Part shown: positions 10,324 through 49,479 of the stretch, piece after piece
Layout of the letters: the number at the start of each line of letters is the position of its first letter
Numbering within the stretch: position 1 is the stretch's first letter
Source of the DNA: a virus
Taxonomy: Duplodnaviria > Caudoviricetes
IMG/VR virus record: IMGVR_UViG_3300001580_000006
Coordinates: 64,001-128,000 of that record
Length of the DNA stretch: 64,000 bases
Reading direction: 5' to 3' (one strand)
The notes under the pieces: generated by a model
Told to the model about the DNA's origin: nothing
The model's input: the letters and a program-made list of their open reading frames with translations, nothing else
Database searches by the model: none
Translations under genes and position numbers: made by a program

Positions 10324-12902
10324 GTACTGTAGGAACATACTGCCAAAACTCTAGTGTATTAGTGTATAACTGGTCTGGACGCATATATACACCAGAAGAA
10401 CTAAACAGAGCCATTGTAGCCCTTACTGCTGTAGCTAACAACTCAAATAGCGTAGTGTCAAAGTTTGCTATAGTACTAGGCGACTACAACGCTGCAATGA
10501 GCAGTGTGCCGGTCTCTGATATTGAGCTGTTCTACGAGTGGTACACAGGAGCTGGCAAGAGGAGTTCATTTGCACAGCTGGACTCGCACATTAGGCTGCT
10601 TATTAGTGTACCAACGGTAGCACAGTGGGCGGTAAGTGACGAGGTGTGGTTATATGCCGGTGACGTAGACTCCTATAATCTCTTTCCTGGAGCAGGCAAG
10701 GTATCAGATGTATTTGATGACTTAGCTGACTCGTCATGGCCACATTACGGCTCGTCATGGCTAGGCCTTCCAATGAGTGGCGCAGCATCTAGGGCGGTGT
10801 ACTCTACCATTGTCGCTAAAATAGGAAACTCTGTCTATATGTACTCCCCGTCGCTGAAGAGCTTTGACATAGTACAGAACGAGTCTGCAGTAAGTATACT
10901 AACTAAGCCTTATTACTATATTATAAATACAGATATCACATCTATAGATACTCCGCCGCTTGGCAGAGCATCCTGTGTAGTAGCTCCGGATACAGAAGAC
11001 AATATTCCTCTGTTACACATGGGCGCGCATGCTGGGCTAAATGATCCACACGTTGGAGCCTGGAGGATGATGCTAGGTGCTGATCTAATAGGAACACCTC
11101 CAGCCTACCTAAGTGTACTATATCGCAGAAGCTACTATCCAGAATATTACGCAGCAAATGACATAGATGCCAGCTTATATTGGTCTAAGGAGGCGCTACA
11201 GCCATCATTACTGCGTACAAGGTACTCAGTTGTAGAGGTAGCGCAAGCTCAGGACACGGTGCAGCAGATACACGATAACGCCACTATTGTTGGCATTTCT
11301 GAGCCGGACGGCGTGAGGGCAAATCTATTTTTCGAAGTACCAGTATACAGTGGTCCTATGCCTAGCGACTCTGGGTTCGCTGGTGGAAAAGCTCTACTTG
11401 CCTACCAAGTATCTGTTAATATTAGACATAGAGATACTGGTAGCTTAATATTTCAGCAAACAATATCAGCTCCTATTATCTCACAGTGGACCATTCCGTA
11501 CCAAACATATCCAGTTTATTTCCGAGTTCCTATAACTGATATCACTGGTGTTTCTGAGGAGCAGGGTGTACAACGCTGGGGAGCTTTTGCCGAGCACAAC
11601 GATCCTGATGGCATTTATGGCATACATGGAAAGTATGATGCGACTACCCTCGGTAATACTGTGGTAAGACTAAGCACCTACACTAATACAATACCTTGCT
11701 ATGATACTATAAACAACAGCAGGGCCTGGCTAAGCACACCCCCAACTATAAATAAGCCTATTAGGTTTCCAGGCACAGGGGCGTACACGCTACAAATATC
11801 ATATAAGGGGTTTGCTGTAAGTAGTGGGTCTTTGGTAGCAACTTCCGACGCCTCATTTGGTAGTTTTGGTAGCGGCATGCATGATGTTATAAAGGGCTGG
11901 CTAGAAAGAAACATTGGTGCAGACTTCAGCGATCTATTTGACAAAAGATTCGATCTGCTTGGATACTATGATTCATTTAATAATATAGATTGCACAAAGA
12001 TTGGTGGAGCAGTCGGGGTCAGCAGCGATGGGGCTAACCTAATGATTACTCCAATAGCTAGTGCTGATATGTCAGGAATGATAGAGCACGAGTTCTTTGT
12101 AACAGATAGTATAACCAACAACCTTATAATAGATCCTGGGCTAATGGTAGGCGAGCAGGTGGTAACTCAAAACCCCACCATTAGGTGGCACTGGCAAGAT
12201 GCAGCTGAAGCACCAAACATAGACTATTATGTATTCGAGGCGTGGAGAAACGGTGTCAGCATGGATTTGGGCAACGACATAGGTAAAACGCTGTACACTG
12301 ACGAGATGTCTTTTCAACTGCTTACCGATGCTACACCTGCTAGTTACACAATAAGAGTACGAGGTATACCAGTTGACCAGCCATTTGCATACCTAGCCGA
12401 GAAAACATTCGCCTTAAGCCCAGTATCAGCACCGGAGTTGGCAGTAAGCAATATAACTCTAACCTGCGAAGTAGAGAAACCAAGATTCCAACCTATTAGG
12501 CTTCTTTGCTACAATCAAGAGCCTAGTTCGGAGTCTCCTGGCTACTATTCTCCTGATATAGAGGGAGCGGATAAAACTGACTGGCAGACGCTAACTCCTC
12601 CAGTACTAAACACTTACAACGGCATACTAGAATTCTACTACAGCGACGGCAAAATATACACTAATGCGGATTTGCGTTCTGTCGCAAAATATGTTATAAT
12701 TATATATTATAGGCTGTATGACTTCATTAGTTTAGAGCTAGATCTAGAACGCTCTAACGAGCACAGCCCACGAGTCTATGGCTACACCATAGCGTGTTCA
12801 CCAGACGTATTCACTCCTCCTCCAAGTCAACTTACTGCACCATCTACGCCTACTAAGCGGCCAACGGTGAGAAAAGATTTAACAGAGCGAGCTACGGCTT
12901 AA
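10320..12902 (+). CDS. Putative virion protein
   Basis: 860 aa, ATGA overlap with the upstream gene, FN3-like segment near the C-terminus. Confidence 0.5.
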   Translation: MSTVGTYCQNSSVLVYNWSGRIYTPEELNRAIVALTAVANNSNSVVSKFAIVLGDYNAAMSSVPVSDIELFYEWYTGAGKRSSFAQLDSHIRLLISVPTVAQWAVSDEVWLYAGDVDSYNLFPGAGKVSDVFDDLADSSWPHYGSSWLGLPMSGAASRAVYSTIVAKIGNSVYMYSPSLKSFDIVQNESAVSILTKPYYYIINTDITSIDTPPLGRASCVVAPDTEDNIPLLHMGAHAGLNDPHVGAWRMMLGADLIGTPPAYLSVLYRRSYYPEYYAANDIDASLYWSKEALQPSLLRTRYSVVEVAQAQDTVQQIHDNATIVGISEPDGVRANLFFEVPVYSGPMPSDSGFAGGKALLAYQVSVNIRHRDTGSLIFQQTISAPIISQWTIPYQTYPVYFRVPITDITGVSEEQGVQRWGAFAEHNDPDGIYGIHGKYDATTLGNTVVRLSTYTNTIPCYDTINNSRAWLSTPPTINKPIRFPGTGAYTLQISYKGFAVSSGSLVATSDASFGSFGSGMHDVIKGWLERNIGADFSDLFDKRFDLLGYYDSFNNIDCTKIGGAVGVSSDGANLMITPIASADMSGMIEHEFFVTDSITNNLIIDPGLMVGEQVVTQNPTIRWHWQDAAEAPNIDYYVFEAWRNGVSMDLGNDIGKTLYTDEMSFQLLTDATPASYTIRVRGIPVDQPFAYLAEKTFALSPVSAPELAVSNITLTCEVEKPRFQPIRLLCYNQEPSSESPGYYSPDIEGADKTDWQTLTPPVLNTYNGILEFYYSDGKIYTNADLRSVAKYVIIIYYRLYDFISLELDLERSNEHSPRVYGYTIACSPDVFTPPPSQLTAPSTPTKRPTVRKDLTERATA

Positions 12903-25211: not shown

Positions 25212-25288
25212 TGGTGGGCAAAGACTGAATCGAACAGTCCACCTCGTCCTTATCAGAGACGCGCTCTAACCAACTGAGCTACTTGCCC
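25212..25288 (-). tRNA. tRNA-Ile(GAT)
   Basis: Anticodon arm CGTCT-CTGATAA-GGACG; TTCGATT loop; ACCA end. Confidence 0.9.
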
Positions 25289-25815
25289 GTTTTCGGAAAC
25301 TGACCGGTTATGTGGAAAGTGCGGTGGCAGTTTGGGCAAAGAACTATGCATTTATCAAGTTCGCCCTTAATAACAGACCATGATTTTGTTAGACTATTGC
25401 CAATAGCAAAGTCTTTCTCGTTTGGGTCGCGGTGATGGTACTCCATAATCCTATGCTCCCTATCAAATCCACACGATGCACAAATACAACCTGTATATTC
25501 AATAGCGCGGGCTCGCATCATATGCCTTGATTCATTGAGCCTACAGGTCGTACATTTGGTAGTACTAGACCCACGACGTAGAATATAATCTTTCTTACAA
25601 ACTATACATGTACAAATATCACCGTAGTGGTGTTTTAGTGGTCTACATTGGATACAATATGCCAGCCCTGCCTTAATACTTGCACCACAAATCCTGCATA
25701 CTCCGGTTGGGAGCATGTGTCTTCGGCCCGGTGTTTTATTATGACTGATTGCCGCACAGCTACGCGAGCAGAACTTCGGATTCTTTGTCTCTTTACCGCA
25801 AGTAGCGCACCTCAT
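25279..25815 (-). CDS. HNH endonuclease with N-terminal zinc fingers
   Basis: CATC...FCSRSC, several CxxC, EYHHRDP...KCIVLCPNCHRTFH; GGAG RBS. Confidence 0.9.
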   Translation of the reverse strand: MRCATCGKETKNPKFCSRSCAAISHNKTPGRRHMLPTGVCRICGASIKAGLAYCIQCRPLKHHYGDICTCIVCKKDYILRRGSSTTKCTTCRLNESRHMMRARAIEYTGCICASCGFDREHRIMEYHHRDPNEKDFAIGNSLTKSWSVIKGELDKCIVLCPNCHRTFHITGQFPKTGK

Positions 25816-25859: not shown

Positions 25860-25889
25860 ATTATAACACACCTTGTGGTTCGAAACCAA
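25860..25889 (-). promoter_or_regulatory. Extended -10 promoter for the HNH gene and downstream tRNAs
   Basis: TTGGTT-N18-TATAAT with TGTGT directly before the -10. Confidence 0.65.
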
Positions 25890-36949: not shown

Positions 36950-36978
36950 ATTATACCATAAATCTTGGTCAAATCCAA
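36950..36978 (-). promoter_or_regulatory. Sigma70/sigmaA-type promoter
   Basis: TTGGAT-N17-TATAAT with TATGG extension. Confidence 0.8.
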
Positions 36979-43956: not shown

Positions 43957-43985
43957 ATTATACCACATTAATTTGCAAAAAGCAA
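43957..43985 (-). promoter_or_regulatory. Sigma70/sigmaA-type promoter
   Basis: TTGCTT-N17-TATAAT with TGTGG extension. Confidence 0.8.
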
Positions 43986-44021: not shown

Positions 44022-46898
44022 CTATTGCTCTTCTGGCTCTTGCTTGCCTAGAAATCTTTTGGCTAAGCTAGACGCCAGTAAACTGGCCTGTTCATCGGCT
44101 GACTCCGGCGGAATGCCATCTAATACTGCATCTCCGGCTTCTGCCTTTGCCACAACATCCTGTGCTAATAAGGCATCATAGGAGTTGTCTAGTACCATTA
44201 CATAAACATTTACAGAACCCTTCTGCCCAAACCTATGGCACCTATCCTCAGCTTGGCGCATTATAAATGGACTGTAGTGCTGCTCTACAAATACTACCGT
44301 TGATGCAGATTGTAAGTTAATAGTATCTCCAGCAGCTTCGATAGAGCCTATGAATATTCTACGATCAGGGTTGTTATTAAACTCGTCTATGATATCAAAC
44401 CGCCTGGTCTGATCATTCATTCTTCCATCTATAAGCAAAGAGCCAGGAAACGCTGAGGTTAAAATATCCGATACGTCATGGTGTCTAGTAAACACAACTA
44501 TCTTTCCCTTGTCGTCTTCCATCTCCTCCAACAAATCCTGTATGAACTCTACGGCAGCTGGAGCTTTCGCAACACCAACCTTCTTCATAAGACTAAATAT
44601 CATTCCCTGAACTTCTGGTTTTCTCATACAGGAAATTATTTGGGCGATAGTAGGAGCTCTATTGCCGAGCTCTCTCCCTAGTTCTTTGAATAGAGACTTC
44701 TCAGCTTTACGCACCTCAACTCGGTTCTTTGCATCAGTCTCTAACTCAATGATGGTCCGCACTTTTGGTGGGAGGTCTTTAAGAACTGCCGACTTTAGTC
44801 TACGCATCATACAACTTTCAGACAGCTTCTGGTGAAGATCGTCCATATTTATTGGAGCTGACTTTTTATAATCCTGATTGCCAGAGTGTGTTACAGGGTC
44901 ATACCCAAAGTATCTACGCAAGAACCAAGCCTTATCTGGGAATGTTAGTGGGTCAATGAGATGGATGATCTTCCACAGGTCAAGCACCTTATTGTATATT
45001 GGAGTTCCGGTTGCACAGATTACAGCTTGAACCTTCCTGCAAATAGTCATAGCTGCCTGTGTTCGCTGCGCTTTGTAGTTTTTGCAGTTGGAGACTAAAA
45101 CCCCGTTGGCGAAATAGTTATTGTTATTAGCAACTTCTATGTTGTATACAGGTATTAGATCCTGCGTTTGGCTATTTCCTGTAGAACTCGTGGTAGGTCC
45201 GCTATAACCTCCTCGTTCCAGAACCTCAGCACTAACCACCCGAGAGCACGCAAGACCTCTGTTTTCCGATGGTCGAGGAACCGCCAAAGTTTCAGTTTGT
45301 GTGTTTTGCCGTCGATCTCTATTGCTATCTTCCGTATTGGATCTGCTATATCCACTTTGTAGCAATGAGGTAAACTTTTGAATTGTTCGGCAACAGGATG
45401 CGTTAATATAATATATTCTGTTGGAAGACCTAGTGCATCCGCAACTAATTTCTGCTGAGTAGTTAGTGTTCCATTGCCACCCCGTGCCAAGAAGGTTCTG
45501 CCAATTAACTTTTGCCGCATCTTTTCCCTGGCAACGGGGTCTGCCATTGGATTGCGCTCCCTCATCCTCTGCGCAGCATCCGGGCGCCTTCGTCCTACAT
45601 TTGATGCCTGTGCTGTCTTTATTACAACACGACAGATTTCTTTTCTGCCCGGCTGTGCCATTCTCCATTTTGCGGCACAGGTGTTGCCGCAAAAGCGCAA
45701 TCTGTTCTTTGCACCATAATGATTTTTTGGTATAAAGGTCCTGCCACAATACTCGCAGATCTGTGGCTTTATTGGCTTCTTTAGCGCCTTGCTTATCGCG
45801 CTTCTTACATCGATTCGCGCATTTACCGCTATAGCGGCACAGCTTCGGGAGCAGTATACCGTTGTCGTCCTGCCGCGTTTTCTGGTTTTGAACTTCTTGT
45901 GGCAATACCGACAAGACATCTCTGTTAGACAAGCTTGCCGCCTCTTTGTAGCCCGAAGCAGTCCAGATCTTGTGGTTGCCAGTGCAGATAAATTCTCCAT
46001 GTTCATGGGTTATCCTCATCAATGTGTTAGTATAATTATAGCACATTTCATAGGAAAATCCAATATGCCTCTTAAATCTTTCTGCAATGGGCTGCCACTC
46101 TAACTGTCCAGTTTGTTTGTTATGGGACAGAGCCAGGTGCCCAACGCCGTGTTCAACCACGTCGCCTATTGACTGTGGTCCTTCATCAGTTATTATAGTA
46201 GCATTATATGGAAAGCAAAAGTGTGCTTCATCTAGTACAATTAACTGTGGGGCAAACTCTTTAATAACGTCTACGTACCTATTAAGTATCTCATAGTTAA
46301 TTATGAATACTATTCTTCCCCCTTGTTGAAGGTAGACGCGGCTTTGTTTCATCCAGTCTATACAGTCGTTCCCAGTGGCGAACCTTACGAGCTTTTCGCC
46401 CATAAGCCACTTGTTTGTCTCCCTTTCCCAATTCTTTTTTCCTATCGCTTTGCATACAACCACAACCTTTCTAATATCGGTTCTTAAGTTTAGCCAGGAC
46501 AGTATCTCGATTGTCTTTCCTGTGCCCATTTCGTCGGCTAATAGGATACGGCCATCATGTAACTGTGCAAACTCTACTGCAGCCCTCTGGTATGATCTTA
46601 CGATAAGCCCTTCTGGACACGGCACCTCTATATCAGATTCAGTGGCCCTAGATAGAGCCTTAGACTTGACCTTACGGTCCGCCAAAGTTATGGCTTCTGC
46701 TCTGATTGGTTCTATCTCCGGATCTAGAACTACACCTGGAGTGTCGCTGCCAAGTAGGCTAAGAAGTTGTTTGCGATTTAAGTACCAGCATTTATCTTCT
46801 GGCGACCAGGTAGCCTTAACGTCCTTTAAATAATCCTTCTCGTGATATGAAGTGATTGCGACGTATAAGTCTGCGCCAGGCTCTTTAAATATCTGCAC
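44022..46898 (-). CDS. SNF2-family helicase containing an intein
   Basis: LLADEMGTGKT, LDEAH, ATGTP, MMRRLK, INLQ, QAEDRCHRFGQ. Confidence 0.95.
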   Translation of the reverse strand: MQIFKEPGADLYVAITSYHEKDYLKDVKATWSPEDKCWYLNRKQLLSLLGSDTPGVVLDPEIEPIRAEAITLADRKVKSKALSRATESDIEVPCPEGLIVRSYQRAAVEFAQLHDGRILLADEMGTGKTIEILSWLNLRTDIRKVVVVCKAIGKKNWERETNKWLMGEKLVRFATGNDCIDWMKQSRVYLQQGGRIVFIINYEILNRYVDVIKEFAPQLIVLDEAHFCFPYNATIITDEGPQSIGDVVEHGVGHLALSHNKQTGQLEWQPIAERFKRHIGFSYEMCYNYTNTLMRITHEHGEFICTGNHKIWTASGYKEAASLSNRDVLSVLPQEVQNQKTRQDDNGILLPKLCRYSGKCANRCKKRDKQGAKEANKATDLRVLWQDLYTKKSLWCKEQIALLRQHLCRKMENGTAGQKRNLSCCNKDSTGIKCRTKAPGCCAEDEGAQSNGRPRCQGKDAAKVNWQNLLGTGWQWNTNYSAEISCGCTRSSNRIYYINASCCRTIQKFTSLLQSGYSRSNTEDSNRDRRQNTQTETLAVPRPSENRGLACSRVVSAEVLERGGYSGPTTSSTGNSQTQDLIPVYNIEVANNNNYFANGVLVSNCKNYKAQRTQAAMTICRKVQAVICATGTPIYNKVLDLWKIIHLIDPLTFPDKAWFLRRYFGYDPVTHSGNQDYKKSAPINMDDLHQKLSESCMMRRLKSAVLKDLPPKVRTIIELETDAKNRVEVRKAEKSLFKELGRELGNRAPTIAQIISCMRKPEVQGMIFSLMKKVGVAKAPAAVEFIQDLLEEMEDDKGKIVVFTRHHDVSDILTSAFPGSLLIDGRMNDQTRRFDIIDEFNNNPDRRIFIGSIEAAGDTINLQSASTVVFVEQHYSPFIMRQAEDRCHRFGQKGSVNVYVMVLDNSYDALLAQDVVAKAEAGDAVLDGIPPESADEQASLLASSLAKRFLGKQEPEEQ
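45155..46006 (-). CDS. Zinc-finger + DUF559/Vsr-like endonuclease overprinted in the +1 frame of the intein
   Basis: CRYC..F..YCSRSC, CEYC..F..FCGNTC, YKVDIA, IAIEIDGKTH, LRALGWLVLRFWN; GAGG RBS. Confidence 0.88.
   Translation of the reverse strand: MNMENLSALATTRSGLLRATKRRQACLTEMSCRYCHKKFKTRKRGRTTTVYCSRSCAAIAVNARIDVRSAISKALKKPIKPQICEYCGRTFIPKNHYGAKNRLRFCGNTCAAKWRMAQPGRKEICRVVIKTAQASNVGRRRPDAAQRMRERNPMADPVAREKMRQKLIGRTFLARGGNGTLTTQQKLVADALGLPTEYIILTHPVAEQFKSLPHCYKVDIADPIRKIAIEIDGKTHKLKLWRFLDHRKTEVLRALGWLVLRFWNEEVIADLPRVLQEIAKRRI
46035..46063 (-). promoter_or_regulatory. Promoter embedded in the intein coding sequence
   Basis: TTGGAT-N17-TATAAT with TGTGC extension, 28 nt upstream of the endonuclease ATG. 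Confidence 0.8.
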
Positions 46899-49192: not shown

Positions 49193-49479
49193 TCTATTAC
49201 TCCACTAGTTAGTTCTTTAGTTTCACCCGATCCTAGCCACGGTATTAGGTCTACGACGTATCTAATCTCGCCTTCCTTTTTTAGTGCGTAATCTACAAAT
49301 ACGGAGACCCTAACTGCACCGCGTTTAGTGGCGGCCACGGTTTCTATGCCGCTAGCCTTAGTGCCACATCTGTGGGCTTTACCGTTATTGCCCTGTACCG
49401 TTCCATAAAACACAGCCATATTATTATACCATACTTTATATTGAATTCCAAAATGCTTGGCCGTTTCGAAATTGGCCAA
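49189..49479 (-). CDS. Hypothetical protein
   Basis: 96 aa. Confidence 0.5.
   Translation of the reverse strand: MANFETAKHFGIQYKVWYNNMAVFYGTVQGNNGKAHRCGTKASGIETVAATKRGAVRVSVFVDYALKKEGEIRYVVDLIPWLGSGETKELTSGVIE

Follow-up and report, generated by a model that had tools for sequence, protein, structure and literature searches.

A predicted phage promoter and gene start translated as part of an intein splicing domain, ahead of an out-of-frame nuclease gene

Inteins whose homing endonuclease is encoded in another reading frame were noted by Gorbalenya (1998) and have been described in two preprints (Gosselin, Arsenault & Gogarten, bioRxiv 10.1101/2025.01.02.630785; Phillips, DeSimone & Gogarten, bioRxiv 10.64898/2026.09.14.751524). 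Here we describe such a locus in which the out-of-frame nuclease gene is preceded by a candidate promoter and ribosome-binding site (RBS) written in codons of the intein itself. It lies on the minus strand of a 64,000-nucleotide (nt) stretch of a Caudoviricetes genome (IMG/VR record IMGVR_UViG_3300001580_000006; hereafter the window, with positions counted from its first letter), inside an intein that interrupts a helicase gene of the SNF2 family. As in the out-of-frame inteins of those papers, the splicing domain is intact, the intein frame is open and the nuclease occupies a separate, overlapping open reading frame (ORF). Putative Shine-Dalgarno (SD) motifs before the out-of-frame start have been reported by Phillips et al. 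(bioRxiv 10.64898/2026.09.14.751524), and secondary ORFs were found usually to lie outside the splicing domain by Gosselin et al. (bioRxiv 10.1101/2025.01.02.630785); promoters are mentioned in neither preprint. The present locus differs from the inteins of both in that the candidate promoter, the SD motif and the first ~34 codons of the nuclease all fall inside the N-terminal splicing domain, and in that the nuclease is of the DUF559/EDxHD type, is read in the +1 frame and resides in a helicase intein.

Other mobile nucleases are known to bring expression signals of their own. Free-standing Vsr-like nucleases in fractured genes carry control elements that include phage promoter-like 5′ elements (2009, PMC2677866), and they resemble the present case in having a Vsr-like/DUF559 nuclease at the equivalent intein place, as a free-standing gene with its own signals. 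In that system, however, the host gene is split into a pair of ORFs, with the signals in untranslated spacers, whereas in the present locus the host frame runs on without a break and the signals are translated as intein residues. The intron ORFs of phage T4 (Gott et al. 1988) and mobE of phage Aeh1 (Gibb & Edgell 2007) are homing-endonuclease genes inside other genes with promoters of their own, so that the mobile nuclease is expressed independently of the resident gene, as is predicted here; the promoters there are located in spliced-out RNA or between the two halves of a gene, whereas the one proposed here lies in sequence that must also fold as a protein-splicing domain. An insertion in the methylase gene of phage ShiLan likewise holds a hidden out-of-frame HNH nuclease with an open host frame, but its authors could detect neither an RBS nor a promoter and proposed leaderless initiation (PMC11855218), whereas our window shows a complete module of candidate promoter, SD motif and ATG. 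How such hidden nucleases are translated was posed as an open question in the same paper (PMC11855218), and the present locus offers a concrete, testable answer to how they are expressed, in one phage. The out-of-frame arrangement of an intein nuclease is already known; what is new, as far as the DNA can be read, is a putative promoter-SD-ATG module in translated splicing-domain sequence, brought in by a loop insertion.

A putative start module in the codons of the splicing domain

The original prediction placed TTGGAT and TATAAT, 17 nt apart and with a TGTG extension, between splicing blocks A and B of the intein, followed by GAGG and an ATG in the +1 frame, and this is exact when the minus strand is read. 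The parts of the module, all within the helicase ORF, are as follows.

46058-46063, minus strand: −35 hexamer TTGGAT, with GGCATA before it and a T-run after it, as in the phage's other promoters of the TTGG class
46041-46057, minus strand: spacer of 17 nt between −35 and −10, by direct reading
46035-46045, minus strand: extended −10 element, TGTGc + TATAAT with a TRTG-type −16 element (TGTG at 46045-46042, TGc+TATAAT at 46043-46035)
46027-46028, minus strand: predicted transcription start (A/A), 7-8 nt past the −10 element, from the sigma-70 spacing rule
46013-46017, minus strand: SD motif GAGGA, within intein codons M67-R68-I69, with a gap of 6 nt before the ATG
46004-46006, minus strand: ATG of the nested nuclease in the +1 frame, formed by the intein codons for His71-Glu72 (cAT Gaa)

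In promoters of the sigma-70 type, transcription starts 7-8 nt after the −10 element. The distance of 28 nt from the −10 element to the ATG and of 6 nt from the SD motif to the ATG are both typical of the canonical starts of this phage. In the intein frame the whole stretch, promoter, SD motif and ATG included, is read as residues 51-72 (HIGFSYEMCYNYTNTLMRITHE), between blocks A and B.

The candidate promoter belongs to a sequence family that is overrepresented in this phage. TTGGNN-N16-18-TATAAT occurs six times in the window against 0.82 expected, a count reached by 0 of 100 shuffles, and TGNTATAAT occurs 13 times against 4.1 expected. Throughout the 223-kb phage genome the pattern TTGNNN-N14-16-TGNTATAAT has 18 sites, of which 15 stand directly upstream of correctly oriented genes, mostly with an SD motif and ATG 20-45 nt after the −10 element. 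Members of the family have flanks in common: GCAT(T/A)TTGG or TACTTGAC upstream, a T-run after the −35 element, an A/T-rich end of the spacer, a TRTG −16 element and, often, TATA after the −10 element. The TRTG element is typical of Gram-positive sigma-A promoters. The −35 and −10 hexamers of the intein site had been described as identical to those of an intergenic promoter at 36950-36978, and TATAATTATA as common to these two sites and to a promoter at 25860; TTGGAT-N17-TATAAT is indeed present in both of the former, and TATAATTATA in all three.

We trained a promoter matrix on the 15 gene-upstream sites, leaving the intein site out, and also computed a non-pattern score from those positions left free by the search pattern. 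The non-pattern score of the intein site (14.9 bits) exceeds every leave-one-out score of the training sites (maximum 14.1), and a fraction of only 2.7e-5 of the genome's positions scores as high. With the full matrix, 21 sites in the genome score above 18 bits, among which the intein site ranks 13th with 35.2 bits and is the best of the six that were not used for training. Below it among the non-training sites come two intergenic ones (29.8 and 26.2 bits), 28 and 6 nt away from gene starts, and their placement validates the matrix as a finder of gene fronts. The match of the intein site to the phage promoter family exceeds chance, and by these scores the site is a full member of the phage's predicted promoter set, placed in a coding region.

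Promoters of this family also stand before other mobile nucleases. Free-standing HNH-type genes supported by Pfam follow at least 3 of the 15 training promoters, namely L258 (NUMOD3+HNH), L254 (HNH_2) and L255 (HNH plus helix-turn-helix), at genome positions 215-243, 147484-147512 and 196331-196359. The promoter at 25860-25889 of the window had likewise been assigned to a free-standing HNH gene; it is a fourth case within the training set, in that an HNH motif can be seen by eye in the ORF behind it (25279-25815, minus strand), but this ORF had no Pfam match. The mobile nucleases of this phage thus seem to tend to carry one promoter type, which fits with the nested nuclease being regulated as they are. 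Near its N-terminus the ORF at 25279-25815 has a zinc finger (C..C...FCSRSCAAI) very similar to the first of the two in the nested nuclease (C..C...YCSRSCAAIA), and these two different nuclease types appear to have a DNA-binding module in common. The highest-scoring promoter in the genome (42.7 bits) is the one at 36950-36978 on the minus strand, which points to a region with only tiny ORFs ahead of a terminator-like hairpin.

The loop insertion and the closest relative

Alignment of intein N-domains places most of the candidate promoter in a short insertion.

46035-46064, minus strand: insertion of 30 nt (10 codons, IGFSYEMCYN) in a loop between two Hint β-strands before block B, from the alignment

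The insertion amounts to the −35 to −10 stretch plus one base. Among 66 distinct aligned intein N-domains it is present only in the window (IGFSYEMCYN) and in a protein designated P0121 (IGFSQKVCYN), and the other 64 have a gap at this place. The alignment bears out the claim that the promoter is translated as an insertion, although the insertion comprises 10 residues and not the 13 first given. In an AlphaFold model of the intein the insertion (residues 51-60) has a predicted local distance difference test (pLDDT) score of 58, the minimum of the N-domain, with values below 50 at residues 58-60, and it lies between strands at residues 38-52 and 66-71. Judging by this model, an insertion in a surface loop should carry the promoter while leaving the Hint fold undisturbed. 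It had further been predicted that the insertion would co-occur with a +1 ORF, and this did not hold, given that 64 other distinct inteins have a +1 ORF and lack the insertion. Since the window and P0121 alone carry it, the nested gene can exist without the insertion, and on the aligned sequences the putative promoter insertion is a lineage-specific addition and no hallmark of the nested arrangement.

P0121 is the sole close relative among 1.84 billion representatives (E 6e-37, 64% identity in the N-domain). P0121/P0271 has the same helicase and the same intein insertion site, with 51% identity overall. A +1 protein that could be encoded in the P0121 frame reaches up to 126 of 171 residues identical to the window nuclease, a dynamic-programming bound, against a maximum of 51 for shuffled sequences, and because its frame is compatible to this extent P0121 is taken to carry the same nested gene. 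The residues kept in P0121/P0271 are IGFS, which encode the −35 element and the T-run, CYN, which encode TGnTATAAT, and NTLMRITHEHG, which encode the SD motif and the ATG; those changed fall in the spacer (YEM to QKV and YT to SI). This pattern of kept and changed residues fits constraint at the DNA level, as read through the protein. P0121 was not found in IMG/VR or GTDB genomes, its nested protein, sought among the nuclease matches by two-frame codon compatibility, gave no match (longest run 27), and a word-index protein search with the intein N-domain returned only the window's own protein.

The nested nuclease and how it may be expressed

The gene behind the candidate promoter is a nuclease gene in its own right.

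45155-46006, minus strand: nested ORF of 283 residues in the +1 frame, with two zinc fingers and a DUF559/EDxHD (Vsr-like) nuclease domain (Pfam PF04480, E 6.5e-13)

The nested nuclease has 120 homologues, residues E230, D232, H236 and D245 are invariant in 40 sequences, and there is a match to the endonuclease-like protein of PDB 3hrl (E 1.7e-6). Across the nuclease gene the host frame has no stop codon against 20.8 expected and is open in 0 of 20,000 synonymous resamplings, whereas the third frame has 25 stops; by these counts selection keeps the intein frame open. Relatives of the nuclease were gathered from IMG/VR and GTDB genomes; among these loci (L001-L108), 104 have a full-length relative, and ~100 of the 104 place the nuclease in the +1 frame relative to a long host ORF, which stays open throughout the gene. 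Thus the nested nuclease is a real free-standing gene; the open host frame (no stop against ~21 expected) and the frame relation common to ~100 of 104 loci rule out a frameshift artefact, as had been argued before from the promoter. The host ORFs of the related loci encode inteins with Cys1 and a terminal (S/H)N, then C or S. The nested ATG occupies the equivalent His-Glu/Asp position in L003, L004, L012, L044, L026, L085 and L086, so that a start at these codons is older than the 30-nt insertion; many other members of the family have a later nested start that is preceded by strong AGGAGG sites. In these ~100 loci the layout of zinc fingers and DUF559 in the +1 frame is found in large ORFs, helicase-like and other, that come from phages, Chloroflexi, Proteobacteria, Azospirillum canadense and others, and this overprinted family is large and mostly unannotated.

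A generic sigma-70 matrix was applied to 87 non-redundant loci of the family, scored against dinucleotide shuffles of each locus's own upstream region. Sigma-70-like sites were enriched upstream of the nested ORF, with 19.5% of the 87 loci at p<=0.05 (Kolmogorov-Smirnov p = 6.6e-5), against 3.4% at p<=0.05 in a control region inside the nuclease gene. In L053/L058, on IMG/VR contigs of 120 and 234 kb, a perfect TTGACA-N17-TATAAT falls in the same part of the intein N-domain as in the window, immediately ahead of block B, where it is encoded in VDNLVKVEYNN; it lies upstream of a nested start with AGGAG and involves no insertion, and it may be a further, independent instance of an intein that contains a promoter. 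It therefore seems that promoters have been embedded more than once in the family, though in a minority of its members, roughly a fifth, a figure to be taken as a statistical hint. It is tempting to generalize that promoters in translated intein sequence are a recurrent, selected way for out-of-frame homing endonucleases to uncouple their expression from the host gene, realized here by the in-frame insertion of a 30-nt phage promoter cassette into a loop of the Hint domain, which makes a single stretch act as protein loop, as promoter and RBS and as the start of a second ORF; we hold this view tentatively, at slightly short of even odds.

For the window itself we propose that the nested nuclease is an autonomous gene whose own start module is laid over the N-terminal splicing domain of the intein. 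The promoter would be of the type used by host RNA polymerase (sigma-70/sigma-A-like, with an extended −10 element) and kin to the ~15 gene-upstream promoters of the phage. Host RNA polymerase would start near 46028 and produce a short-leader mRNA, with ~22 nt that include GAGGA ahead of the ATG formed by the His-Glu codons, and the nuclease would be translated from it in the +1 frame without need of the helicase message. In frame 0 the helicase precursor would be read through, so that the promoter yields the loop IGFSYEMCYN and the nuclease gene a disordered linker of ~210 residues, after which the intein would splice itself out. We assign this reading a probability of about 0.7: the sequence elements, their statistical place in the phage's promoter family, the insertion, the reality of the nested gene and the open host frame are established, whereas a start of RNA polymerase at this site, and a separate timing or level of nuclease expression, are inferred. 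If the promoter is active, the mobile nuclease would be timed independently of the helicase that it parasitises, and the site would be a compact piece of natural DNA that is constrained thrice, by a protein fold, by signals for transcription and translation and by a second reading frame.

Several observations weigh against a dedicated promoter. The site is not intergenic as is the norm for its family, and the 15 training promoters are themselves predictions. Its −35 hexamer agrees with TTGACA at 3 of 6 positions, although an extended −10 element usually compensates for a weak −35. Inside the insertion P0121 is identical at 8 of 14 positions, which is not above the domain average, and conservation there is at the protein level only. 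The pattern also has intragenic matches elsewhere, at 49423-49451 on the minus strand (25.6 bits, 231 nt before the next gene start) and at 12672-12700 on the plus strand (22.1 bits, 203 nt before the next gene start), which could be internal promoters or chance matches. Lastly, ~100 relatives keep the nested gene without the insertion, so the gene does not depend on a dedicated promoter, and initiation within the helicase mRNA could be enough.

This last point leads to the alternative that the nuclease is made solely by internal translation initiation at GAGGA and the ATG on the helicase mRNA, with the promoter-like stretch unused or minor. It accords with the persistence of the nested gene in most family members, which lack the insertion, with the strong AGGAGG before many of their nested starts, and with the account of the dnaX out-of-frame endonuclease, for which Phillips et al. 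(2026) give SD motifs only. We nevertheless regard it as unlikely, given that ribosomes in frame 0 would pass over the internal SD motif, and that it leaves unexplained why a 30-nt insertion should mirror ~45 nt of the phage promoter consensus 28 nt before an ATG. Somewhat less probable still is that the promoter is real and has another role, such as boosting the 3′ part of the helicase and the genes downstream. A transcript from 46028 must continue through the remaining helicase ORF, and there is no terminator-like site between 46028 and 44022; after the site, however, the nuclease ATG is the first start equipped with an SD motif. No start is obvious for a 3′ fragment of the helicase, which would lack the half with motifs I and II, and the next gene (43934) is preceded by one of its own, at 43957-43985, from this promoter family. 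That the stretch is a protein-level loop of this intein lineage alone, resembling a promoter by coincidence, would suit the tolerance of inteins for loop insertions and the retention of loop residues in P0121 at about the domain-wide rate. Yet the non-pattern match, found at 2.7e-5 of positions, comes on top of a search pattern for which fewer than one occurrence is expected per genome, and the loop is modelled with low confidence and has no counterpart in 64 relatives, so that coincidence is very improbable.

Host gene, intein and minor observations

The gene and the intein in which the module lies have the following coordinates.

44022-46898, minus strand: ORF of the SNF2-family helicase hosting the intein, 958 residues, a single uninterrupted frame in the ORF list
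45087-46217, minus strand: intein of 377 residues in helicase motif II (DEAHF/C...VSN/CKN, slashes marking its ends), boundaries from the translation
46217 and 45983-45972, minus strand: Cys1 of intein block A and T79..H82 of block B, respectively, from the translation

The helicase ORF matches SNF2-rel_dom (E 1.8e-29), Helicase_C (E 3.2e-10) and Intein_splicing (E 2.5e-5) in Pfam, and the host gene is unbroken at the intein, the 958-residue ORF reading through it and not being divided in two. The splicing blocks are intact (C1, T79, H82, N377 and +1 C). No match to the locus or the intein was found in GenBank phages by blastn or tblastn, and no RNA hairpin over the nested RBS of the kind present in the T4 and Aeh1 endonuclease genes was found at the locus (fold z-score −0.2).

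The AlphaFold model of the intein, for which 38 family inteins served as input, shows a confident Hint fold at residues 1-50, 66-110, 321-333 and 355-377, with pLDDT of 93-97 for the Hint strands and ~45 for the middle part of ~210 residues that overlaps the nuclease gene. Residues 321-333 (window 45190-45230) form a confident Hint β-strand, SRVVSAEVLERG (pLDDT 94; family consensus RVESVE.LE.G), and the 3′ end of the nuclease gene, with its GW.VLRFWNEEV motif, overlaps this strand. The nested gene is therefore dual-coding at both of its ends and not only at the promoter end. Related inteins (46217 of the window compared with L001-L016) sit at three adjacent positions of motif II, namely DE/CH, DExH/C and DExHx/C, the last being that of the window, and the insertion point has moved within the intein family by one to three codons.

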